NCBI GenBank assembly: GCA_038087875.1 | Contig: CM075988.1 | Coordinates: 62,001 to 126,000 of the forward strand | From: Malacoraja senta | Taxonomy: Eukaryota | Reading direction: 5' to 3' | Length of the DNA stretch: 64,000 bases | Shown here: piece after piece, positions 3,946 to 55,120 of the stretch | Numbering within the stretch: position 1 is the stretch's first letter | How the letters are laid out: the number at the start of each line of letters is the position of its first letter | Position numbers and translations under genes: made by a program | Notes under the pieces: generated by a model | Databases searched by the model: none | What the model was told of the DNA's origin: nothing | The model's input: only the letters and a program-made list of their open reading frames with translations

Positions 3946-4550
3946 TAGAATAGAATAGAATGCCTTTTATTGTCATTCAAACAGCTTGGTTTGAACGAAA
4001 TTGCATTTTCTACAGTCTTAGCATTACAAAAAATACCAAGACCCACACTTAACACAATTTACACAAACATCCATCACAGTGAATCTCCAACACCTCCTCA
4101 CTGTGATGGAAGGCAAAAGTCTTATCTCTTCCCTTTGTTCTTCTCCCGCGGTCCAGCAGTCCAACTGCAGCGTCGAGGCGAACTGGGGCTCCCGACGTTA
4201 AAGCCCCCGATGTTACTGTCCACCAGGCCTGCGGTCGGAGCCTCCGAAGCTCCAAAGTCGGGTCGCAGCCGCGCGCCACCACAGCTCTTCCCGCTCCGAA
4301 GTCGGCCAGCTCCAAGATGTCAGTTCCGCCGGCTCCACGATGTTAGGCCCAACGACACCGGAGACCCGACAGGGAAAAAGTCGGGTCCCCGTACAGGGAA
4401 GAGATGAAACGGTTCCCCCCCCCCACCCCCACCCCCACATATACACAGCTAAAAAATAATACAAACTAGAATCAAAAACATACATTTAACGAGACAAAAA
4501 TTAAAAAAAAAGACAGACGGACTGCAGTCGAGCCGCTGCCGTTAGGCATC
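3946..4550 (-). mobile_element. GC-rich non-coding retroposon (structured SINE-like family), copy 1
   Basis: Same architecture as the copies at 14845, 17180, 25086 and 54305: T-rich leader, G-run, hairpin A, GC core, hairpin B, then a Rex-type tail with a microsatellite. Confidence 0.75.
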
Positions 4551-4827
4551 GTCACACCACCACCTCCACCTAGTTCCTTGAAGGTGGTGAGGGGTAGATG
4601 GGGTGGGCAAAAGTTAGGCCAATGGGACTGTTTCCACTCTGCATGGCTCCATGAATCTGTGACTAAGTGTCTCCAATGAGGTAGATGGGAGGTCAAGACC
4701 GCTCTCTAGTTGGTGAGAGGATGGTTCAGCTGCCTGATGAACCTAAACTGAAACCTTGTGTGACCAATATGTCTTACAGCAGGTTGGCTGGATGGCAGAA
4801 GGTAACGAGTTGTGAGTCTGTGACTTG

Positions 4828-6202: not shown

Positions 6203-7410
6203 ACCCTTCCTTTAACCTTCTATGATAGATAGAGCTTTTATAAATTGGGAAAGAGCAGGAATTAAAACGTTTGGAGATATGTATGATAATGGAAGTTTTT
6301 AACATTTCACCAATTACAACTTAAATACAACTTGAATAATAATCAATATTTTAAATATTTCCAACTACGTGACTATTTGAAAAAGTATACACGGGAATAT
6401 CAAAATATCTCTCCTGACTTATTAGATGGGATAATGAATATAAAAGCGGAATCAGCTAATTTAATATCATACCTATATAATTCCATTTTAAATATAGAAA
6501 TTCCATCATCGGACGGGATCAGAAGAGAATGGAACAGAATTGGCTATAAAAATCTCGAAAGAGAGTTGGGATAAAACATCTATTATATGTGCATAAATGT
6601 TCGATTAACGTAAGACATACTCTGATTCAATTTAACATTTTACATAGATTATATTATTCAAAAGCTAAATTAAGTAAATTTTACCCAAATACCTCTGCTA
6701 ACTGTGATAAATGCCTAGTCCAAGAATCAACTATAGCACATTCTTTTGTTTTCTGTATAAAAATTCTAAAATTTTGGAATGAAATTTTCACTAAATTATT
6801 TAAAATAAAACTGAAACCGAATGCAGAATTGATTATTTTTGGAACAATAGAAGCAAGTTTGGAGCTGACTTCGTTTCAAAGGAGTTTTCTTAGTTATGGC
6901 TTAATAACGGCAGAAAAATTAATACTGAAATTTTGGAAAAATGCTCCTACGCCAACAATAAAAATGTGGACTTCTAATATGTCGGAATTGTTACATCTAG
7001 AAGATATGAGATTCCTCCTAGCAGGTAAAACAAGACCAATTCCAAAAGATTTGGTCTCCATATATCGACTTATTACAAACATAGGGTGCAACAAAATGTT
7101 GATAATAAATGGTTTTAGGACCTGGCGAGGGGTGAGTAAAGATAAGAAGTAGGCACATCCCTTTCATATTGTCCTATCTTATTTTCTTTTTTCTCTTTTT
7201 TTCTTTTCTTCTTTAACTACTTCTTGTGGTTTAGGTTCAAATGTGTGTTCCTGGGCCACTTTTTCATTCACTCACTGACTGTCCTTGCTAGTTCTTTCTA
7301 TTCTTCTTTTCTATTAAAGTTGAAAAACAGAAGTGGTACAAGAACTGTATAAATTTACGTTATTGCAGATTACTGTAATGTAAAATACTTCTAAAAAAAT
7401 AAAAATATTT
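6203..7410 (+). mobile_element. L1 LINE 3' fragment (degenerate ORF2 C-terminus plus 3' UTR)
   Basis: ORFs 6332..6574 and 6589..7152 give FKYFQLRDY...LIQFNILHRLY...CDKC...TIAHSFVFC...FWNEI (fish-type L1 CCHC region), followed by a T-rich UTR and an A-rich end. Confidence 0.85.
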
Positions 7411-14460: not shown

Positions 14461-14644
14461 CTCCTCACCTCTGGACCATGGCAGCACTTACACAGCAGGC
14501 TCCTGTTGTAGAATAGGGAGACAATAGGCAATAGGTGCAGGAGTAGGCCATTCGGCCCTTCAAGCCAGCACTACCATTCAATGTGATCATGGCTGATCAT
14601 CCCCAATCAGTACCCCGTTCCTGTCTTCTCCCCATATCCTCGGT

Positions 14645-14810
14645 AAAAGATCCCAGGCTCCGCGATGGTAAGCCCGCGCCACGCCCGCGGCTTGAAGCTC
14701 CGGGCCGGTCCCCAGGAAAGGCCGCACCATTCCAAGTTGTTGGCTGCAGGGGGTGGGGGGGGGGGGATGGAGATGCAACACGAAAAAAAATCGCAGCTCC
14801 ATCGAGGTAT
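14645..14810 (-). mobile_element. GC-rich retroposon fragment
   Basis: Hairpin A variant ggagatgcaa...tcgcagctcc. The flanking sequence is the reverse complement of 25270-25345. Confidence 0.6.
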
Positions 14811-14844
14811 ATCAGATAGAAGCACAGAGTCAATTTTAATTTTT

Positions 14845-15700
14845 TTTTTTTTTCAATTTAATTCAATTTATTTGTCTTTTGAGGGACAAATTTGTCATTT
14901 GGACCCCTTGAGGTCCAAACGAAATGTCGTTTCTGCAGCCATACAATACAAAACAAAGAAGACCCGAGACACAACACAATTTACACATACATCCATCACA
15001 ACGCTGTGATGGAAGGCAAAAATAACGTATCTCTCCACTGCACTCCCCCCCCCCGATGTCAGAGTCAAAGTCAAAGCCCCCGGCGGGCGATGGTAATTAT
15101 CCCGCGACCATTATAGCCTCGCCGGGTGATGCAAGGTCGCGCACCGGGTCTTGGTGTTAGAGCCCCGGCGCTCGCCCGCAAAGTCCGGCAGCCATTCCAA
15201 GCCGCACGGGGGGATAAAGCCCCGCTCCAGGTGCTCTTCAACCCCGCAACTCGGGCGGGAGAGTCGCCGCTGCGGAAGCCCCGAAAAGCGGTCTCCCACC
15301 AGGGGACCCGCGGGCTTCCAGTGTTGCCGTCCGCCAGACCCGCGGTTGTAACCTCCGAATCTCCGGCGGTCGGGTCGCAGCAGCGATTGTTTCCACCACA
15401 GCTCCACCCGCTCCGGACTCGGCCAGCCCCGTGACGGTGAGTAGTCCGCAGCTCCGCAACTGGAGCCCCAGGTCGTTCCTGCTGGAGGCCGCTCCACGTT
15501 GCCCAGCCCCAACGACAACGGAGACCCGACAAAGAAAAGGTCAGGTCTCCCGTGCAGGGGAAAGATTTCAAAGTTCTCCCCCCCCCACCCCCACCCCCAC
15601 CCCCCCCACACACATACCCCGACAAAAAAAATAATAAAAACTACATAAAACGAGACAAAAATAATAAAAAGACAGACGGACTGCAGAGGCCGCTGCTGAC
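14845..15700 (-). mobile_element. GC-rich non-coding retroposon, copy 2
   Basis: Hairpin A at 15520-15550 and hairpin B at 14992-15013. Leader agacagacggactgcag is shared with copy 1. Confidence 0.78.
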
Positions 15701-15888
15701 GAGAGTCAGGCAGCATCTGTGGAGAACTTGGATAGGTGACGATTTGGATTGAAACTTGAACGTCGCCTATTCCTTTTTTTCCACATATGCTGCCTGACCC
15801 ATTGAGTTACTCCAGCACTTTGTGTCTATCTCCGGTTTAAACCAGCATCTGCAATTCCTTCCTAAACTAAACTAAACTAAACTAGACA

Positions 15889-16509: not shown

Positions 16510-17180
16510 TAAAAATCCTCGGAGTCAATATCACCAACTACTTCTCCTGGACCACCCATATTGAAGCAACGACCAAGAAAGCACACCTATTTCCTTAGAA
16601 GGCTAAGGAAGTTCAACATGTCCCCGACAACTCTCACCAACTTCTACAGATGCGCCGCAGGAAGCATTTTATCGAGGTGCATCACAGCACGGTTTGGGAA
16701 CAGCTCCATCCAAGACCGCAAGAAATTGCAGCGAATTGTGGACGCAGCCCAGACCATCACACAAACCAACCTCCCTTCCATTGACTCCATCTACACCTCA
16801 CGCTGCCTCGGCAAGGCCAGCAGCATCATCAAGGACCAGTCTCACCCCGGCCACTCCCTCTTCTCCCCTCTCCCATCAGGCAAGATGTACAGAAGTGTGA
16901 AAGCGCACACCTCCAGATTCAGGTGCAGTTTCTTCCCGGCTGTTATCAGGCAACTGAACCATCCTCTCACCAACTAGAGAGCGGTCCTGAACTCCCATCT
17001 ACCTCATTGGAGACTGTCAGACTATCTTTGAATGGACTTTACTGGACTTTACCTTGTACTAAACGTTATTCCCTTTATCGTGTATCTGTACAGTCTGTAC
17101 GCAATGTGTACACAGCGGAACATTTATGTACGCAACAAAACCTTTTCACTGTAGCTCGATGCACATGACAATAAACTAAG
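16510..17180 (+). mobile_element. Rex1/Babar 3' fragment (family B)
   Basis: ORF 16561..16977 has YFLRRLRKFNMS...NFYRC...HPGHSLFSPLPSG. Tail tttcactgta...tgacaataaa. Confidence 0.92.
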
Positions 17181-17875
17181 TTCACATTTATTGCCCCATG
17201 CACCAGTTAAGGTACGGTGGAATTTGATTTACCATGCAGCCATACAAACAAAAAGAGCACAATATACAATAGAATATAACATGAACATCCACCACAGTGG
17301 AACCAACATTCTTCACTGTGGTAGAAGGCAACAAAGTTCAATTAGTCCTCCTCCTTTGTTCCCCCGTGGTCGGGGCCATGAACCCTCCGTAGTCGCCGCT
17401 ACGGACGGCCCGATGTACAGGGCCTCTCGTCGGGATTCTCGAAACTCCGACGTCGGGACAGACGGACACCCCGCGGCTTGGAGGTCCCGAATCGGCTGCT
17501 TCCTTCCGGAGAACGCGGCTTCACGATGTTATAGGCCGCAGGCCGGCGGTCGGAGCTCTTCTCCGGCGATCCCCGGCAAGGGCTCGCCCGGCACCGAGAT
17601 GGAAAGTCCGCACTGCGCCTGCTGCTGAAGCTCTGGGCCCGACTCCGGGAAAGGCCCCACCAATCCAAGCTGTTAGGCCGCGAGGGAGGGGAAAATACAA
17701 CTAAGGGAAAAGTCGCATTCCACCGAGGTAAGTGACTAAAAAACAGTTTCCCCCAATTCCCGCCCCCAACCCCCCCCCACACTAAAACACACTTTTAGAC
17801 AGACTAAAAACACAAAAAAAAGTGGAATGGATGAACAGCTGCTGGCGTGGCTGCCGGCTCGCGGCTCCACCCGTC
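17180..17875 (-). mobile_element. GC-rich non-coding retroposon, copy 3
   Basis: Hairpin B at 17288-17325. The core is homologous (reverse complement) to 25480-25710. Confidence 0.78.
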
Positions 17876-24694: not shown

Positions 24695-25085
24695 CATATA
24701 AGATTATTATGGGTTTGGACACGCTAGAGGCAGGAAACATGTTCCCGATGTTGGGGGAGTCCAGAACCAGGGGCCACAGTTTAAGAATAAGGGGTAAGCC
24801 ATTTAGAACGGAGACGAGGAAACACTTTTTCACACAGAGAGCGGTGAGTCTGTGGAATTCTCTGCCTCAGAGGGCGGTGGAGGCAGGTTCTCTGGATGCT
24901 TTCAAGAGAGAGCTAGATAGGGCTCTTAAAGATAGTGGAGTCAGGGGATATGGGGAGAAGGCAGGAATGGGGTACTGATTGGGGATGATCAGCCATGATC
25001 ACATCGAATGGCGGTGCTGGCTCGAAGGGCCGAATGGCCTACTCCTGCACCTATTGTCTATTGTCCATTGTCTATTGTCATTGTT
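24695..25085 (+). mobile_element. CR1 LINE 3' fragment
   Basis: ORF 24709..24978 followed by an (attgtct)n tail. Confidence 0.93.
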
Positions 25086-25915
25086 TCAGTGGCTGCCTCG
25101 CCAGCAGCCGTTAGTCCTTTCACCCTTATTGTTATTTTTAATGCGTCTAAATGTATGTTTTAAATGTTCCTCAGTATGTCTTATGTGGGGGGGTGGTAGG
25201 GGGAACCATTTTTTCCAGTCACTTACCTGGATGGAGATGCGTCTTTTCTCTGCGTCGCATCTTCGCCCCCCCCCCTCCCCCTCGCGGCCTACCAACTGGA
25301 TAGGCGCGGCCTTTCCTACCGGAGACCGGCCAGAGCTTCAGCAGTGGGCGCAGCACTGAATTACCATCGCGGAGCGGGGCGATGCCTTGCCAAGGCCTTG
25401 CGGAGCGTTGGGCCTGCTGACTTTAACATCGTGGAGCTGCGGTCTGCGGAGCTTCTAGCCACAGGCGCGACGCTGACTTTAACATCCTGGAGGCCTGGGA
25501 CCTTGTGCCGGGGATCGCCAGTGTTGGAGCTCCCTCCAGCTCGGCCTGTGGACTTCGGAAGCCGCGGTCTCCGGTAAGAAGCGGCCGATTCGGAAACTCC
25601 AGGCCGCAGAGTGTGTTCATCCGTTCCAACGTCGGAGTTCCGATCATCCCAGCAAAAAAGGACCTGAACATCCGTAACGGCGACTGCGCAGGGCTCAAAG
25701 GCCCCGACCACGGGTGAACAAAGAGGAAGGAAGATGACTGAACTTTACTGCCTTCCCCCACAGTGGGAAACGTTGATTCCGCTGTGTGGGGATGTTCATG
25801 TTAAACTCTATCGTGTATTGTGTTCTTTTTATTGGTATGGCTGTATGGTAGCTCAAATCTCACTGTACCAATTGGTGCATGCGACAATACATGTAAACTT
25901 GTGAACTTGACTTGA
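25086..25915 (+). mobile_element. GC-rich non-coding retroposon, copy 4 (apparently complete)
   Basis: Hairpin A at 25233-25264, internal (t)aacatcgtggagct-like repeats, hairpin B at 25754-25792, tail tctcactgtaccaattggtgcatgcgacaata plus acttg repeats. Confidence 0.8.
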
Positions 25916-37090: not shown

Positions 37091-38154
37091 GTCATTTGTT
37101 CTACATCTCTCTACATCACCGTCCATATCTCTTGTTCTCTCTCCCCTGACTCTCAGTCTGAAGAAGGGTCCACAACCCGAAACGTCACCCATTCCTTCTC
37201 TCCAGAGACGCTGCTTGACCCGCTGAGTTACTCCAGCATTTTGTGTCTATCTTCGGTGCGAACCAGCATCTGCGGTTCCTTCCTACACATTAGGCCGCCT
37301 GTTCCCTCTCTCTCTGACAGCTGGGTGTAAGTGTAGCCGTCTGCCCTCCGGGCTACGCTGTAACACTACGCTCCGTGACAAAGAGCGATCTCGCTCTTCC
37401 CTGGATTTGTTTTCACCAAACCTGGTCGATGCTCGTGTTGAGCAATTAAAGGTGGCTAAACAGACAGCGCGGCTGAAACCCGGTCCGCTCTGCTTCTTTC
37501 AACAGATGAATAGGCACTTGGCCTGGTGCCTGCACCTGTCAGCCTCCCATTGCTCACCTCCCACTGCTTCACCTCCAGGCACCAAAAACCTACCCATCCA
37601 CTCTCCTCTTCCGCAGCCACCCGCCTCTTCCCAGCAGACGCTCAGCATGTCCCGAACGGCTCACACCGCGAGACGCAGCCCAAACTATACTAGTCCCACC
37701 TAGAGTCACAGAGTGATACAGAGTGGAAACAGGCCCTTCAGCCTAACTTGCCCACACCGACCAACATGTCTCAGCTACACTAGCCAATATCAATATCAAT
37801 CAATATCAGGTTTATTCGTCACAAGTTTACGAAGTGACGAATTAGATAGAGCTCTAGGGGCTAGTGGAATCAAGGGATATGGGGAGAAGGCAGGCACGGG
37901 TTATTGATTGGGGGCGATGATCACAATGAATGGCGGTGCTGGCTCAAAGGGCCGAATGGCCTCCTCCCTCCTGCACCTATTTTCTATATTTCTATGTTTC
38001 TATGAAATGAATTTGCCAGCAGCGGTACAATGAAAAAAGAACACACAATACACAATAAAAATTGAACACAAACATCCACCACAGCGTTCATCACTCTGGT
38101 GGAAGACACCAACATTTGCCTGTCCTCCTCCATTTCCCCCGTGGTGGACAATAA

Positions 38155-38836
38155 ACATCAGACAATAGGTGCAGGAGTAGGCCATTCGGCCCTTCGAGCC
38201 AGCACCACCATTCAATGTGATCATGGCTGATCATCCCCAATCAGTACCCCGTTCCTGCCTTCTCCCCATATCCCCTGACTCCGCTATCTTTAAGAGCCCT
38301 ATCTTGCTCTTTCTTGAAAGTATCCAGAGAACCAGCCTCCACCGCCCTCTGAGGCAGAGAATTCCACAGACTCACCACTCTCTGCGTGAAAAAGTGTTTC
38401 CTCATCTCCGTTCTAAATGGCTTACCCCTTATTCTTAAACTGTGGCCCCTGGTTCTGGACTCCCCCAACATCGGGAACATGTTGCCTGCCTCTAGCGTGT
38501 CCAAACCCTTAATAATCTTATATGTTTCAATAAGATGCCCTCTCATCCTTCTAAACTCCAGAGTGTACAAGCCCAGCTGCTCCATTCTCTCAGCATATGA
38601 CAGTCCCGCCATCCCGGGAATTAACCTTGTAAACCTACGCTGCACTCCCTCAATAGCAAGAATGTCCGTCCTCAAATTAGGAGACCAAAACTGCACACAA
38701 TACTCCAGGTGTGGTCTCACTAGGGCTCTGTACAACTGCAGAAGGACCTCTTTGCTCCTATATTCGATTCCTCTTGTTATAAAGGCCAACATGCCATTTG
38801 CTTTCTTCACTGCCTGCTGTACCTGCATGCTTACTT
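38155..38836 (-). mobile_element. CR1 LINE 3' fragment
   Basis: ORF 38241..38828(-). Confidence 0.94.
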
Positions 38837-42819: not shown

Positions 42820-44010
42820 GAACGAACAGCAGATGCTGGTCTAAATCGAAGGGAGACACAAAATGCTGGAGTAACTCAGCGGGACAGGCAGCGTCTCTGG
42901 AGAGAAGGAATGGGCGACGTTTCGGGTCGAGACCCTACTTCAGACTGATGTCGGGAAGAGGGTGGGACAAAGATGGAATGTAGTCGGAGACAATAAGACT
43001 AGTGGGAGAACTGGGAATGGGAAACATAGAAAATAGGTGCAGGAGGAGGCCATTCACCCCTTCGAGCCAGCACCGCCATTCAATGTGATCATGGCTGATC
43101 ATCCCCAATCAGTACCCCGTTCCTGCCTTCTCCCCATATCCCCTGACTCCGCTATCTTTAAGAGCCCTATCTAGCTCTCTCTTGAAAGTATCCAGAGAAC
43201 CTGCCTCCACCGCCCTCTGAGGCAGAGAATTCCACACACTCACCGGTCTCTGTGAGAAAAAGTGTTTCCTCATCTCCGTTCTAAATGGCTTACTCCTTAT
43301 TCTTAATCTGTGGCCCCTGGTTCTGGACTCCCCCAACATCGGGAACATGTTTCCTGCCTCTAGCGTATCCAAACCCTTAATAATCTTATATGTTTCAATA
43401 AGATTCCCTCTCATCCTTCTAAACTCCATAGTGTACAAGCCCAGCCGCACCACATATAACAGTCCCGACATCCCTGGAATTAACCTTGTAAACCTACGTT
43501 GCACTCCCTCAATAGCAAGAATGTCCTTCCTGGAGTAACTGGAGTAACTCAGCGGGACAGGCAGCATCTCTGGAGAGAAGGAACGGGCGACGTTTCGGGT
43601 AGAGACCCTTCTTCAGACTAATGTCAGGGGAGTGGACGGAACAAAGGTAGAATGTAGTCGGAGACAGTAATACTAGTGGGAGAATTGGGAAGGGGAGGGG
43701 ATGGAGAGAGAGGGAAAGCAAGGGTTACTTGAAGTTAGAGAAGTCAATGTTCATACCGCTGGGGTGTAAACTACCCAAGCGTAACATGAGGTGCTGTTCC
43801 TCCAATTTGCGCTGGGCCTCACTCTGGCAATGGAGGAGGCCCAGGACAGAAAGGTCAGATTGGGAATGGGAGGGGGAGTTGAAGTGCTGAGCCACCGGGA
43901 GGCCAGGTAGGTTAAGGCAGACTGAGCGGAGGTGTTCAGCGAAACGATCGCCGAGCCTGCGCTTGGTCTCGTCGATGTAGAGAAGTTGACACCTGGAACA
44001 GCGGATACAG
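42820..44010 (-). mobile_element. Penelope-like element with two tail copies (42820-43021 and 43535-44010) separated by a CR1
   Basis: GIY-YIG coding on the minus strand at 43730-44010. About 150 bp of tail is repeated at 42867 and 43539. Confidence 0.85.
43022..43530 (-). mobile_element. CR1 LINE 3' fragment
   Basis: ORF 43109..43567(-). Confidence 0.92.
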
Positions 44011-44038
44011 TCGTACTGTAAATGGCTCGATTGTAATC

Positions 44039-45916
44039 ATGTATTGTCTTTCTGCTGACTGGATAGCACGAGACCAGCAGAGGAGGACAAAGGGCTTAAT
44101 TAGGAAAGGGAAAATAGATTATGAAAGGAAACTGGCAGGGAACATAAAAACTGACTGCAAAAGTTTTTATAGATATGTGAAGAGAAAGAGATTAGTTAAA
44201 ACAAATGTAGGTCCCTTGCAATCAGAAACAGGTGAATTGATCATGGGGAACAAGGATATGGCGGACCAATTGAATAACTACTTTGGTTCCGTCTTCACTA
44301 AGGAAGACATAAATAATCTGCCGGAAATAGCAGGGGGCCTCAGGTCAAAGGAGATGGAGGAACTGAGTGAAATCCAGGTTAGTCGGGAAGTGGTGTTGGG
44401 TAAATTGAATGGATTAAAGGCCGATAAATCACCAGGGCCAGATAGGCTGCATCCCAGAGTACTTAAGGAAGTAGCTCCAGAAATAGTGGATGCATTAGTG
44501 ATAATTTTTCAAAACTCTTTAGATTCTGGAGTAGTTCCTGAGGATTGGAGGGTAGCAAACGTAACCCCACTTTTTAAGAAGGGAGGGAGAGAGAAAACGG
44601 GGAATTACAGACCAGTTAGTCTAACATCGGTAGTGGGGAAACTGCTAGAGTCAGTTATTAAAGATGGGATAGCAGCACATTTGGAAAGTGGTGAAATCAT
44701 TGGACAAAGTCAGCATGGATTTACGAAAGGTAAATCGTGTCTGACGAATCTTATAGAATTTTTCGAGGATGTAACTAGTAGAGTGGATAGGGGAGAACCA
44801 GTGGATGTGTTGTATCTGGACTTTCAGAAGGCTTTCGACAAGGTACCACATAAGAGATTAGGATACAAACTTAAATCACACGGTATTGGGGGTTCAGTAT
44901 TGATGTGGATAGAGAACTGGCTGGCAAACAGGAAGCAAAGAGTAGGAGTAAACGGGTCCTTTTCACAATGGCAGGCAGTGACTAGTGGGGTACCGCAAGG
45001 CTCAGTGCTGGGACCCCAGCAATTTACAATTTATATTAATGAACTGGATGAGGGAATTGAAAGCAACATCTCCAAGTTTGCGGATGACACTAAGCTGGGG
45101 GGCAGTGTTAGCTGTGAGGAGGATGCTAGGAGACTGCAAGGTGACTTGGATAGGCTGGGTGAGTGGGCAAATGTTTGGCAGATGCAGTATAATGTGGATA
45201 AATGTGAGGTTATCCACTTTGGTGGCAAAAACGGGAAGGCAGACTATTATCTAAATGGTGGCCGATTAGGAAATGGGGAGATGCAGCGAGACCTGGGTGT
45301 CATGGTACACCAGTCATTGAAAGTAGGCATGCAGGTGCAGCAGGCAGTGAAGAAAGCGAATGGTATGTTGGCCTTCATAGCAAGAGGATTTGAGTATAGG
45401 AGCAGGGAGGTTCTACTGCAGTTGTACAGGGTCTTGGTGAGACCACACCTGGAGTATTGCGTACAGTTTTGGTCTCCAAATCTGAGGAAGGACATTATAG
45501 CCATAGAGGGAGTGCAGAGAAGGTTCACCAGACTGATTCCTGGGATGTCAGGACTTTCATATGAAGAAAGACTGGATAGACTTGGCTTATACTCGCTAGA
45601 ATTTAGGAGATTGAGAGGGGATCTTATAGAAACGTACAAAATTCTTATGGGGTTGGACAGGCTAGATGCAGGAAGATTGTTCCCGATGTTGGGGAAGTCC
45701 AGGACAAGGGGTCACAGCTTAAGGATAAGGGGGAAATCCTTTAGGACCGAGATGAGGAAAAGCTTTTTCACACAGAGAGTGGTGAATCTCTGGAACTCTC
45801 TGCCACAGAGGGTAGTTGAGGCCAGTTCATTGGCTATATTTAAGAGGGAGTTAGATGTGGCCCTTGTGGCTAAAGGGATCAGGGGGTATGGAGAGAAGGC
45901 AGGTACGGGATACTGA
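44039..45916 (+). CDS. CR1 ORF2 remnant (reverse transcriptase domain). No endonuclease domain; the ATG and first ~10 codons come from an adjacent Rex tail
   Basis: [79 protein letters not shown]. Confidence 0.85.
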   Translation: MYCLSADWIARDQQRRTKGLIRKGKIDYERKLAGNIKTDCKSFYRYVKRKRLVKTNVGPLQSETGELIMGNKDMADQLNNYFGSVFTKEDINNLPEIAGGLRSKEMEELSEIQVSREVVLGKLNGLKADKSPGPDRLHPRVLKEVAPEIVDALVIIFQNSLDSGVVPEDWRVANVTPLFKKGGREKTGNYRPVSLTSVVGKLLESVIKDGIAAHLESGEIIGQSQHGFTKGKSCLTNLIEFFEDVTSRVDRGEPVDVLYLDFQKAFDKVPHKRLGYKLKSHGIGGSVLMWIENWLANRKQRVGVNGSFSQWQAVTSGVPQGSVLGPQQFTIYINELDEGIESNISKFADDTKLGGSVSCEEDARRLQGDLDRLGEWANVWQMQYNVDKCEVIHFGGKNGKADYYLNGGRLGNGEMQRDLGVMVHQSLKVGMQVQQAVKKANGMLAFIARGFEYRSREVLLQLYRVLVRPHLEYCVQFWSPNLRKDIIAIEGVQRRFTRLIPGMSGLSYEERLDRLGLYSLEFRRLRGDLIETYKILMGLDRLDAGRLFPMLGKSRTRGHSLRIRGKSFRTEMRKSFFTQRVVNLWNSLPQRVVEASSLAIFKRELDVALVAKGIRGYGEKAGTGY

Positions 45917-46015
45917 GTTGGATGATCAGCCATGATCATATTGAATGGCGGTGCAGGCTCGAAGGGCCGAATGGCCTACTCCTGCACCTATTTTCTATGT
46001 ATCTATGTATCTATG
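44070..46015 (+). mobile_element. 5'-truncated young CR1 LINE with an uninterrupted RT frame and intact 3' tail
   Basis: No stop codon from ~44070 to 45916. The 3' UTR hairpin and (t/a)tctatgt repeats run to ~46015. Confidence 0.96.
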
Positions 46016-46424
46016 AATGAATAGCTTTTCACTGTACCTCGGTACACGTGACAAGCTGAACATAACTGAGACAGTGCCTTCAGCCCACCAAGTCGGTGCC
46101 GAACAACGATCACCCCCATACACTAGCACTATCCTGCACACTAGAGAAAATTCACAATTTATGAAAGGCAATTTACAGAAGCCAATTAACCTACAAACCT
46201 TTAGACTTTAAACTTTGGTGACACAGCATGGCAACATGCCCTTCAGCCCACCGATCAGCAATCACCCAACATCAACTTAACGCTATCCTGCACACACTAG
46301 GGACAATTTTCATTTAACAGAAGCAAAATAACCTACAAATCTGTACGTCATTGGAGTATCGGAAGAAACCGGAGCACCCGGAGAAAATCCACGCTGTCAC
46401 AAGGAGAAGGTACATCTCCAACAT

Positions 46425-46815
46425 ACCCAACACCTCCGCTCGGTTCGCATTAACCAAACTGATCTCCCGGTGGCTCAGCACTTCAACTCCCCCTCCCATT
46501 CCGAATCCGACCTTTCTGTCCTGGGCCTCCTCCATGGCCAGAGTAAATTGGAGGAGCAGCACCTCATATTTCGCTTGTGTAGTTTACACCCCAGCGGTAT
46601 GAACATTGACTTCTCCAATTTCAGGTAGTCCTTGCTTTCTCCCTCCTTCCCCTCCCCTTCCCAGCTCTCCCACAGCCCACTGTCTCCGCCTCTTCCTTTC
46701 TTTTTCCCACCCCCACATCAGTCTGAAGAAGGGTCTCGACCCAAAACGTCGCCTATTCCTTCGCTCCATAGATGCTGCCTCACCCGCTGAGTTTCTCCAG
46801 CAATTTTGTCTATCT
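46425..46815 (+). mobile_element. Penelope-like 3' fragment
   Basis: Same GIY-YIG C-terminus and tail as 26820-27305. Confidence 0.88.
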
Positions 46816-47099
46816 CCATGCAGAAAGCACCCTTAGTCAGGATCGAACCCAGGTCCCTGGCACTGTAAGGCAGCAACTTTGGACCCCATATCTGGGGAAG
46901 GATGTGCTGGCGTTGGAGAGGGAACAGAGGAGGTTTATGAGAATGATCCCAGGAATGTGTGGGTCACCAAATAGTGAAATGCCTTGAATGACTTGATGTG
47001 GAGAGGATGTTTCCACTTGTGGGAGAGGCTGGGCCCACGGGTCATAGCCTCAGAAGAAAAAGACGTTCCTTTCGGAAGGAGTTGAGGTGAAATTGGTGA

Positions 47100-48390
47100 C
47101 AGGATCGGTCAAAGTCAGCATGGATTTATGAATGGGAAATCATGCTTCACTAACCTCATGGAATATTTTGAAGATGTAACAAGTAGAATGGATAAGGGAG
47201 AGCCAGTGGATGTGGTGTATCTGGACTTTCAAAAAGCCTTTGACAAGGTCTCACACAAGAGATTAGTGGGCAAAATTAGAGCACATGGTATTGGGGGTAG
47301 AGTATTGACATAGATAGAGAACTGGTTGGCAGACAGGAAGCAAAGAGTAGATATTAACGGGTCCTTTTCAGAATAGCAGGCAGTGACTAGTGGGGTGCCG
47401 CAAGGCTCGTTTCTGGGACCCCAGTTGTTTACAATATATATTTACAATTTAGACTAGGAAATTAAATGATACATCTCTAGGTTTGTGGGTGACACAAAGC
47501 TGGGCAGCAGTGTGAGCTGCGATGAGGATGCTATGAGGCTGCAGGGTGACTTGGATAGGTTGGGTAAGTGGGCAGATGCATGGCAGAAGCAGTATTAATG
47601 TGTTTAAATGTGAGGTTATCCACTTTGGTGACAATAGCAGGAAGGCAGATTATTATGTCAGATTAGGAGAAGGGGAGGTGCAACGAGACCTGGGTGTGCT
47701 TGTACATCAGTCACTGAAAGTAAGCATGCAGGTACAGCAGGCAGTGAAGAAAGCTAATGGCATGTTCGCCTTCATTGCAAGAGGATTTGAGTTTAGGAGC
47801 AAGGAGGTCCTACTGCAGTTGTACAGGGCCCTGGTGAGACCACACCTGGAGTATTGTGTGCAATTTTGGTCTCCTAATTTGAAGAAGGACATTATTGCTA
47901 TTGATGGAGTGCAGCGTAGGTTCCCCAGGTTAATTCCTGGGATGGCGGGACTGACACATGATGAAAGTATGGGTCGACTGGGCTTGTATTCACTGGAATT
48001 TGGAAGGATGAGAGGCGATCTGAAAGAAACATAACATTCTTAAAGGATTAGACTGACTAGATGCAGGAAAAATGTTCCTAATGTCGAGGGAGTCCAGAAC
48101 CAGGGGTCACGGTTTAAGAATAAGGGGTAGGCCATTTAGGACTGAGATGAGGACAAACTTTTTCACCCAGAGAGTGGTGAGTCTGTGGAATTCTCTTCCA
48201 CAGAAGGCAGTGGAGGTCAATTCTCTGAATGTTTTCAAGAGAGAGTTAGATTTAGCTCTTCGGGCAAAAGTAATCAAGGGTTATGGGGAGAAAGCAGGAA
48301 TGAGGTACTGATTTTAGATGATCAGCCATGATCACATTGAATGGCGGTGCTGGTTCAAAGGGCCGAATGGACTACTCCTGCACCTATTTT
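47100..48390 (+). mobile_element. Degenerate CR1 LINE (RT to tail)
   Basis: VYLDFQKAFDKV...[15 protein letters not shown] with stops and frameshifts (ORFs at 47128, 47546, 48072). Confidence 0.93.
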
Positions 48391-52989: not shown

Positions 52990-54122
52990 CAAGTCAAGTC
53001 AAGTGAGTTTATTGTCATGTGTCCCTGGTAGGACAATGAAATTCTTGCTTTGCTTGAGCACAACAGAACATTTTAGGCATTTACTACAAGGCATTCTATA
53101 AATATATACACAATGGTCAATATACTGATAAAGTGCAAATAACAGTATTGGCTAGTAAAGTTCAGTGTTATGTCCGAGCCAGGTTTAATAGCCTGATGGC
53201 TGTGGGGAAGTAGCTGTTCCTGAACCTGGTCGATGCAGTCTTCAGGCTCCTGTACCTTCTACCTGAAGGTAGCGGGGAGATGAGTGTGTGGCCAGGATGG
53301 TGTGGGTCCTTGATGATGCTGCCAGCCTTTTTGAGGCAGCGACTGTGATAGATCCCCTCGATGGAAGGGAGGTCAGAGCCGATGATGGACTGGGCAGTGT
53401 TTACTACTTTTTGTAGTATTTTCCTCTCCAGGGCGCTCAAGTTGACGAACCAAGCCACGATGCAACCGGTCAGCATGCTCTCTACTGTGCACCTGTAGAA
53501 GTTAGAGAGAGTCCTCCTTGACAAACCGACTCTCCGTAATCTTCTCAGGAAGTAGAGGCGCTGATGTGCTTGCTTTATAATGGCATCAGTGTTCTCGGAC
53601 CAGGAAAGATCTTCAGAGATGTGCACGCCCAGGAATTTGAAGCTCTTGACCCTTTCAACCATCGACCCGTTGATATAAACGGGACTGTGGGTCCCCATCC
53701 TACTCCTTCCAAAGTCCACAATCAGTTCCTTGGTTTTGCTGGTGTTGAGGGCCAGGTTGTTGTGCTGGCACCATATGGACAGTTGCTCGATCTCTCTTCT
53801 ATACTCTGACTCATCCCCATCAGTGATACGTCCCACAACAGTGGTGTCATCAGCGAACTTGATGATGGAGTTCGCACTATGTCCGGCTATGCAGTCATGA
53901 GTATAGAGTGAGTACAGCAGGGGGCTGAGCACGCAGCCTTGAGGTGGTCCCGTGCTAATTATTATCGAGTCTGACACATTTCCACCAATACGAACAGACT
54001 GTGGTCTGAGAGTGAGGAAGTCGAGGATCCAATTGCAGAGGGATGCGCAGAGACCCAGTTCTGCGAGTTTGGTAACCAGCTTGGAGGGGATGATTGTATT
54101 AAATGCCGAGCTGTAATCAATG
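52990..54122 (-). mobile_element. Rex1/Babar LINE (family A), 5'-truncated, with an uninterrupted RT C-terminal frame
   Basis: ORF 53168..54169(-) has [10 protein letters not shown]...[20 protein letters not shown]...[12 protein letters not shown]...KTKELIVDF...LYFLRRLR. Confidence 0.95.
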
Positions 54123-54304
54123 TATTGTCTTTCTGCTGACTGGATAGAACGCAACAAAAAACGTTTCACTGTACCTCGTTACACGTGACAATAAACTAAA
54201 CTGAACTGAACTGAACTGGAGAGAGCGGGGCAGTGGGATTAGTGTGGGATTGATACAGGGCTGTGGATAGAGAGCGGGGCATAATTTTATATTTGCAAGA
54301 CAGA

Positions 54305-55089
54305 CGGGGGCACCATCTATATGTCCTGTAGCTGTCCATTTTTTTCACTTTAAAACATTTTTAGTACGTTAAAGTGTGTTGTTGGGGGTCTAATATTTGT
54401 ATGTGTGGGGAGTGGGGGGGTGGGGGGTGGCAGGGGAAGGGGGGAACTGCTTTTCTCAGTCCCTACCTTGTCGGAGAGGCAGCTTGCCTCCGAGCAGCAC
54501 CTTCGACCCGTCCTCGTAGCCTACCAGCGGGGTCTGGAGCGGCGTTTCCTGAGGGGATCTGGCCAGAACCTCGGCTTCGGCGGTGGCACAGCGCTGGAGC
54601 GCCATCGCGGAGCGGGCGATGCCTTGCCTGGGTTGCCGCGCTGGAGCTCTGGGATGCTGAGTCCACCGATGAATATCGCGGAGCTGCGGGTCTGTGGAGC
54701 GGTCAGCCGTGGGCGGCGGCGCTGAACTTTAACACCGTGAGCCTGGGATCTCTCGCCGAGATCACCAGTGGTGGAGCTCCGTCCAGCGCGGCCTGTCGGC
54801 TTCGGAAGCCGCGGTCTCCGGTAAGGAAGCGGCCGTTCCAGCATCCCAAGCCGCTGAGAGGATTCACCCTGCGAGAACGGCCTGAAACATCGGGCCTCCG
54901 TAAAGGCGACTGCGGAGGCCTCAATAGGCCCGACCATGGGTGGACAAGAGGATGGGGACTGGACTTTGTGCCTTCCCTCACAGTGGGAACCATTGTGGGG
55001 GGATGTTTTTTATGTTAAATTTCTTCTTTAATGTTATGTTGTATTTTTATTAGTGTGCTGAATTTCCCCTGAAAAGGGGATTAATAAAG

Positions 55090-55120
<31 letters not shown>
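54305..55120 (+). mobile_element. GC-rich non-coding retroposon, copy 5 (different tail)
   Basis: The core is homologous to 25360-25800, with hairpin B at 54974-55003. Tail aatttcccctgaaaaggggattaataaagta plus (tta)n. Confidence 0.78.

Follow-up and report, generated by a model that had tools for sequence, protein, structure and literature searches.

What kind of mobile element is the GC-rich sequence that recurs in this part of the Malacoraja senta genome, and is the structure of its RNA under selection? The stretch analyzed here, referred to as the window, comprises 64,000 nucleotides (assembly GCA_038087875.1, contig CM075988.1, positions 62,001 to 126,000). A sequence-only reading had proposed a structured, non-autonomous retroposon family with at least five copies, two covarying hairpins and a LINE-type tail, which is not derived from tRNA, 7SL or 5S RNA. 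The following sections give the copies, the pairing, the ends and partner of the element and finally its place among known systems.

Copies in the window and extent of the family

The five copies and two fragments were recovered at the positions and on the strands given by the sequence-only reading, with the same order of parts and with short internal repeats in the core. One boundary had to be corrected: 25086 is not the start of the element, as the true 5' end lies ~17 nt further upstream and the copy is slightly 5'-truncated. The features assigned in the window are as follows.

25086..25915, + strand: copy 4, member of the largest sampled subfamily, missing ~17 nt at the 5' end; the 39 further matches scored in the genome have the same ends, lie in unrelated flanks and are 80-85% identical to it along most of the element
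25086..25120, + strand: GC-rich head of copy 4, where an internal Pol II promoter probably begins; a 20-mer from the corresponding region of a sister subfamily also marks Rex1 5' ends
25121..25205, + strand: T-rich tract and G-run of copy 4, from sequence; position kept in all subfamily lines
25216..25228, + strand: 5' arm of the predicted long-range helix of copy 4 (pairing and covariation tests; coordinates from sequence)
25233..25264, + strand: hairpin A of copy 4, covarying (alignment, folding, tree test)
25265..25727, + strand: variable CpG-rich core of copy 4 with internal repeats and nested inverted repeats
25728..25740, + strand: purine-rich 3' arm of the predicted long-range helix of copy 4 (pairing and covariation tests; coordinates from sequence)
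25754..25792, + strand: hairpin B of copy 4, conserved in sequence with variable loop (motif count, alignment, folding, tree test)
25860..25915, + strand: Rex1-type tail of copy 4 with stem-loop, decayed polyadenylation hexamer and short tandem repeat (tail comparison; the stem-loop alone is weak here, z -1.0)
3946..4557, - strand: copy 1, of the other main branch, short because of an internal deletion; genomic two-piece matches up to 98%; hairpins at 4359-4391 (A) and 4070-4110 (B), long-range arms ~4395-4405 and ~4124-4134
14845..15705, - strand: copy 2, of a young subfamily, with 39 further matches (93-97% identical); hairpins at 15520-15550 (A) and 14992-15013 (B), long-range arms ~15552-15566 and ~15029-15043
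14624..14809, - strand: fragment comprising hairpin A and the beginning of a core
17180..17875, - strand: copy 3; hairpins at 17693-17721 (A) and 17288-17325 (B)
38004..38156, - strand: 3' fragment, retaining hairpin B and some of the tail
54305..55120, + strand: copy 5, with a different tail type; genomic relatives 80-87% identical; hairpins at 54470-54507 (A) and 54973-55003 (B), long-range arms ~54457-54468 and ~54949-54961
53168..54178, - strand: 5'-truncated Rex1/Babar-type LINE ORF, context outside the element (RVT_1, PF09004; young family, 95-97% identity), presumed to represent the partner clade of the element

Much of the window consists of densely placed CR1-type LINE fragments (43916-47100 and many 3' fragments), with one 666-aa RT frame. 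The stretch 6550-7152 is presumably an L1-like C-terminal fragment.

The family of at least five copies described before is real, and its extent is larger than noted. Dispersed relatives were found with four window copies as queries, at the identities listed above. The genome searched is a 1.94 Gb assembly in which CR1- and Rex1-type LINEs are abundant; it contains 16,622 exact matches to a degenerate 19-base motif of hairpin B, and the reversed control gave none. From sampling density alone (11 copies in 599 kb, taken as sixty evenly spaced 10 kb samples), ~36,000 copies are estimated genome-wide, within a wide interval of ~18,000-64,000. Clustering of 219 distinct copies placed 161 in 12 clusters of at least three members and 58 in smaller ones. 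The subfamilies number at least 12, and their majority lines, 0.7-0.9 kb long, are 51-87% identical over alignable parts. In alignments that include the flanks, the 5' end is fixed, the 3' end lies within a short tandem repeat and the flanking DNA is unrelated. In length, dispersal and number the element conforms to the SINEBase description of a SINE (<1 kb, interspersed, 100 or more copies). Both branches of the family are also present in DNA runs labelled as a second organism (thousands of contigs), and the hairpin-B motif was absent from the viral and metagenome contigs searched. We conclude that the family is a real, abundant, structured superfamily of non-autonomous retroposons.

As the sequence-only reading had claimed, there is no conserved ORF: none is common to the 12 subfamily majority lines, in which place and length of the ORFs differ. 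A start codon ahead of the G-run was considered as a conserved feature and dropped, since the G-run varies in length and the ORFs are not shared. A 1.6 kb copy (L283:1034-2631), whose core is enlarged by tandem repeats and extra sequence with head, hairpin A, hairpin B and tail intact, suggests that the length of the core is free. Family copies lying inside or adjoining other family copies were seen at loci L150, L249 and L163 and at window 14624-14860, twice in inverted orientation; a preference of the family for self-insertion is possible.

Hairpins and long-range helix

All ten hairpins fold in the five copies (z -2.6 to -4.9; 0-1 of 200 shuffles fold as well), and the seven for which coordinates had been proposed are located there. 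Whole copies also fold better than shuffles (z -7.9 for copy 2, z -3.8 for the copy at 25080-25915), and the same holds, modestly, for 11 of 12 cores taken by themselves.

Covariation had been proposed for both hairpins, and it was found for hairpin A. In a sequence-only alignment of 28 subfamily representatives, which we chose from 164 module-bearing copies, hairpin A is 89.5% paired, with double changes in 12 of 14 pairs and a covariation score of 0.458 against 0.271 that none of 500 shuffles reached; the measure of further pair types was non-significant (36/500 shuffles). When the tree was built from the columns outside the stems, parsimony counted five independent compensatory events in this hairpin, a result obtained in 1 of 2000 null runs. 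Hairpin B is conserved in sequence instead: 95% paired over 40 rows, it shows double changes in only two of 14 pairs and one independent event on the tree, matched by 262 of 2000 null runs and hence not significant. Its variation is lowered because the sample was partly chosen by the 5' arm of hairpin B.

Covariation was found in one further element, a long-range helix which the earlier reading had overlooked. A pyrimidine stretch ahead of hairpin A is complementary to a purine stretch ahead of hairpin B, 280-690 nt apart. In 28 copies the arms bind their own partners at -18.7 kcal/mol versus -15.5 kcal/mol for permuted partners (0/10,000 permutations), and the advantage recurs on the 12 majority lines (0/20,000). 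The sequence-only alignment (21 of the 28 copies) has 78% of cells paired and double changes in 10 of 13 pairs (0/500); the score of 0.382 compares with at most 0.234 in slid controls, and the further pair types are again non-significant (72/500). One pair occurs as U-A, A-U and C-G, and changes from C-G to U-G are found as well. By parsimony on the stem-free tree, six independent compensatory events are counted (null 1.1; 0/2000). RNAalifold, unprompted, returned hairpin A, hairpin B and three pairs of the long-range helix.

Several measures are less decisive. Single-sequence folds contain the long-range helix in 7 of 28 copies and three of six majority lines, and the copy at 25080-25915 takes another fold without it. 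Because of their pyrimidine- and purine-rich composition, the arms pair with non-cognate ones as well (-15 kcal/mol); the cognate arm ranks first in its row for only 5 of 12 majority lines. A rule-anchored count of six pairs over 92 of the 164 copies, several rows of which were out of register, was weak (90/126 cells; 358/10,000); rule-based registration misplaced rows, and the alignment-based counts were used instead. On the minus strand the 5' arm (window 25216-25228) reads in one branch as what we take to be a consensus splice donor, a reading absent from the other branches. The RNA of the element is predicted to maintain a conserved fold including a helix between sites ~500 bases apart.

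On the sense strand G-U pairs outnumber A-C combinations between subfamily representatives (44:15 and 62:13, the cells not being independent), and this excess is not seen within subfamilies (63:51). The pattern agrees with source elements being selected through their sense RNA and with copies decaying neutrally once inserted. Together with the covariation of hairpin A it supports the proposal that the RNA structure is under selection.

Complementarity could also have its cause in the DNA, where inverted repeats may undergo repair or template switching, or in A-to-I editing of source RNAs, with no selection on RNA structure. Hairpin arms are indeed close inverted repeats, and A-to-G changes yield sense-strand G-U pairs, so that editing would produce these. 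The long-range arms, however, are imperfect, wobble-rich and ~500 nt apart, and the G-U excess is strand-specific between subfamilies. Moreover, the changes from C-G to U-G and the transversion swaps at one pair speak against such an origin, and editing would itself require an RNA helix. We therefore hold this explanation to be quite improbable.

Tail, head and the Rex1-type partner

The tail is LINE-type, as had been proposed, and of the Rex1/Babar type that was among the partners guessed at. A profile built from 10 subfamily tails, two ambiguous ones being excluded, matches 43 of 76 Rex1-type 3' ends, compared with 0/76 local shuffles, 2/76 antisense sequences and 6/176 CR1 ends. At least four tail types are joined to one body, and none of the Rex1 families searched has a tail that matches exactly. 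In the young subfamily (window 14862-14922) a second stem-loop follows the tail hairpin, just ahead of the polyadenylation hexamer.

If the element were the ordinary 3' UTR of an autonomous LINE, RT ends should adjoin it. No RT end lies directly upstream in 30 tail-anchored loci, nor within 350 nt of hairpin B in 96 copies taken by position. All of the 30 tail-motif loci fetched from 199 matches bear the body (10 are 5'-truncated), and among the copies taken by position hairpin A is kept in 59/96 and the head in 55/96. Hairpin B lies downstream of 161 of 169 hairpin-A matches in loci that were mostly preselected; three of the others are at a locus edge and the remaining five never run into an ORF. 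In evenly spaced DNA, B follows A in eight of nine cases, the ninth being at an edge. With its fixed 5' end, unrelated flanks and no adjoining RT ends in the sampled copies, the element is a unit of its own and the reading as a LINE 3' UTR is ruled out.

A LINE-like 3' tail ending in a simple repeat, as seen here, characterizes non-autonomous non-LTR retroposons. For 43 of 149 copies the empty site could be inferred: 23 junctions show overlaps of 1-6 nt, 14 deletions, one is flush and five have longer overlaps. Short overlaps or deletions in 37/43, together with the 5' truncations, are typical of target-primed insertion. A naive search of 64 copies gave no long target duplications above the mismatched-flank control.

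The partner LINE carries endonuclease, RVT_1 (RT) and PF09004 domains and has a short 5' region without ORF1; we assign it, by assumption, to the Rex1/Babar clade. The absence of ORF1 is in line with the description of Rex1 in the accessible part of PMC13343379. In the search for a parent LINE, the N-terminal query led to one family only and a third protein query to short 3' pieces only. One young Rex1-type family has many near-intact full-length copies at 95-100% protein identity (L106:4311-7961; G000 C1:163528851), and one long ORF in it results from an in-frame insertion into a CR1 endonuclease region. Fragments at L106:820-1970 (+), with a Phage_int_SAM_4 match and RNase H-like text by eye, presumably belong to a DIRS-type tyrosine-recombinase element. 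In a second Rex1 family 7 of 16 loci contain a copy of the element; these are read as insertions because the inspected copies have their own tails and occur in both orientations. At L319:1500-2560 (+) a whole copy has a Rex1 element's 5' region on both sides; the apparent target duplication is 5-7 nt long, and it lies at a word resembling the internal repeat of the copy's own family.

The head was compared with Rex1 5' ends as the sequence-only reading had suggested, and the comparison bears on the possibility that the element arose by internal deletion, as a bipartite derivative, from a Rex1 family that is extinct or unsampled, with head, hairpin A, core and hairpin B inherited as 5' UTR and the structures serving the parent LINE. 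A 20-base pattern is common to both, marking 27 element starts and three 5' ends of one Rex1 family in 30 loci fetched from 915 matches, and in three of the 12 lines the head matches the 5' end of that Rex1 family better than any of 200 shuffles. For one core segment a weak alignment with the beginning of the ORF of that family was obtained (z 8.5, in 1 of 36 comparisons). Repeated subunits of 100-500 bp near the 5' UTR, described for some ORF1-less CR1-group elements in the accessible part of PMC13343379, would also suit such an origin. Wider profile homology was not significant (no match in one test, at most 4.1 bits in another), so that the head is Rex1-like when judged at the level of motifs. 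Further evidence against deletion comes from three Rex1-type families, two full length and the third found by chance: their 5' regions lack hairpins A and B, inserted whole tailed copies apart. One body with at least four tail types likewise disagrees with it, as does the partial text of PMC5786205, which lists ORF-less bipartite derivatives for RTE, Ingi, Vingi and R2 alone. We regard descent by deletion as unlikely.

Which polymerase transcribes the element can be judged from its 5' part. ARAGORN found no tRNA gene. Rfam gave no match at gathering score in the window; six weak matches below gathering were obtained in eight loci with E up to 5, none of them a ribozyme, tRNA, 5S or 7SL RNA. 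These searches are in agreement with the claim that the element does not derive from tRNA, 7SL or 5S RNA. Pol III A and B boxes, reported as missing before, are not positionally conserved in the 12 lines either, box-like words being scattered and at least 200 nt from the start. T-runs (at least four T) begin 18-89 nt into all nine lines cut at the true 5' end; Pol III is unlikely because such early T-runs would stop it. The core shows little CpG depletion (observed/expected 0.8-1.1), and some heads contain words which we take to be ETS-like (8/164) or YY1-like. Judged from these sequence features, the element is likely transcribed by Pol II.

A 10-base word ahead of hairpin A in one branch, presumably U1-like, was tried as a mark of an snRNA-derived head and rejected, as it is internal, absent elsewhere and identical with the 5' arm of the long-range helix. 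That the head comes from this or a Pol III RNA, or that the fold is a self-cleaving ribozyme, is accordingly very improbable, even though HDV-like ribozymes cap several LINE clades in the accessible text of PMC5786205. Besides the Rfam results, an HDV-like descriptor of our own matched 0/164 copies on either strand, and neither of our descriptors, which were run without positive control, matched the 12 lines.

Related systems and proposed mechanism

With discrete ends, dispersed copies, truncations, Rex1-like tails, target-site changes and, between subfamilies, compensating substitutions in both hairpin A and the long-range helix all observed directly, the element is probably a Pol II-transcribed, Rex1-mobilized non-autonomous retroposon whose RNA fold is under selection. 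Transcription would begin at a Pol II start inside the source copy; an internal Pol II promoter is a fairly likely assumption because of the early T-runs and the YY1-like and ETS-like words ahead of the CpG-rich core. The helices would, with good probability, act in the sense RNA of source copies, and inserted copies would decay neutrally. By looping out the freely evolving core, the long-range helix would place hairpin A beside hairpin B near the tail. The Rex1 ORF2 protein very probably binds to the tail and uses the terminal repeat for priming, and target-primed reverse transcription would follow.

Alu, derived from 7SL RNA, is transcribed by Pol III and mobilized by L1 through poly(A), and its fold binds SRP9/14. 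By analogy of function the element resembles Alu in its conserved RNA fold, its non-autonomy and the proposed capture of a LINE protein in trans. Unlike Alu, to which it has no sequence relation, it lacks the 7SL origin, Pol III transcription and L1/poly(A) dependence. We tentatively suggest that the fold may be a platform for capturing the Rex1 ORF2 protein in trans, in a role like that of SRP9/14, as Rex1 has no ORF1 (PMC13343379, accessible part) and the fold outlasts tail swaps. RNA stability or protection, or export, is the main alternative role.

Under the strict definition the term SINE does not apply. According to the available text of SINEBase (PMC3531059), a SINE head is at least 60% identical to tRNA, 5S or 7SL RNA over 60 nt and transcribed by Pol III; the element has no such head and has early T-runs. 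Comparable to it are the bipartite ORF-less derivatives of LINEs (RTE: Bov-A, RTESINE, WALLSI3; Ingi/RIME; Vingi; R2), which share the lack of an ORF, a LINE-type tail and presumed Pol II transcription, and whose LINE-like 5' end the element may share at the level of motifs (PMC5786205, in part). The element differs from them in its Rex1/Babar-type partner, which is absent from that 2018 list as far as available, in the joining of one body to several tails, and in a 600-700 nt body found in no sampled LINE. The same partial text mentions SINEs with GC-rich heads; those of birds (Suh et al. 2016) resemble the element in a GC-rich head not derived from Pol III RNA and in an unproven polymerase, but contain bipartite RTE sequence, and a covarying architecture is not mentioned for them in the accessible parts of PMC7245038 and PMC5786205.

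CORE, Deu and V SINEs (SacSINE1, CmiSINE, HE1) likewise keep an internal module across diverged subfamilies, exchange LINE tails and occur in the same host group, whereas the element has no tRNA, 5S or 7SL head, is about twice as long and bears Rex1-type rather than CR1 or L2 tails (PMC5499810 and PMC3747384, in part). Its conservation, unlike theirs, consists in base pairing across a variable core. A pairing of a non-autonomous element with a Rex1 LINE is given for the sea anemone SINE2-5_NV and Rex1-24_NV in the accessible part of PMC3747384, in which that SINE is, in contrast, tRNA-headed. The coelacanth CoeG-SINE, compared by description only, is another long SINE-like element of an early-branching fish, with copies of 1.0-1.4 kb (PMC4255032, in part).

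There is a lesser but real chance that the family is already catalogued, unnamed or misfiled in RepeatModeler, Repbase or Dfam libraries, or is a relative of CoeG-SINE, and that only its structure went unnoticed; the high copy number would make capture in a de novo library likely, and the length of CoeG-SINE points the same way. This possibility is compatible with the Rex1-mobilized retroposon preferred here. Against it, no description of the family was found in the main texts searched (including the accessible parts of PMC6274825, PMC11481361 and PMC8455134), and the shark and ray SINEs in the available parts of PMC5499810 and PMC3747384 have tRNA heads and CR1 or L2 tails.

The long-range helix is new, and ORF-less non-autonomous elements reaching the Rex1 clade would extend the range known for such elements. 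The finding bears on what conserved SINE bodies do and on how non-coding RNAs overcome the preference of a LINE for its own RNA. Since the conservation is visible as base pairing, with independent compensations in many subfamilies, function could be tested by break-and-restore mutants. At ~36,000 copies the family would account for ~1-1.5% of the genome. As a speculation, a helix-closed loop that tolerates cargo could serve RNA-templated gene insertion. More boldly, and with less confidence than for the capture role itself, the family might represent an old, still recently active and undescribed class of structured RNAs that are transcribed by Pol II and parasitize LINEs lacking ORF1, in which the helix clamps a freely evolving CpG-island promoter into a loop and a two-hairpin platform captures the Rex1 reverse transcriptase in trans and survives tail swaps. 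If this were true, the platform would have evolved independently into a counterpart of the Alu domain, and it might show how the central domain of a SINE originates.
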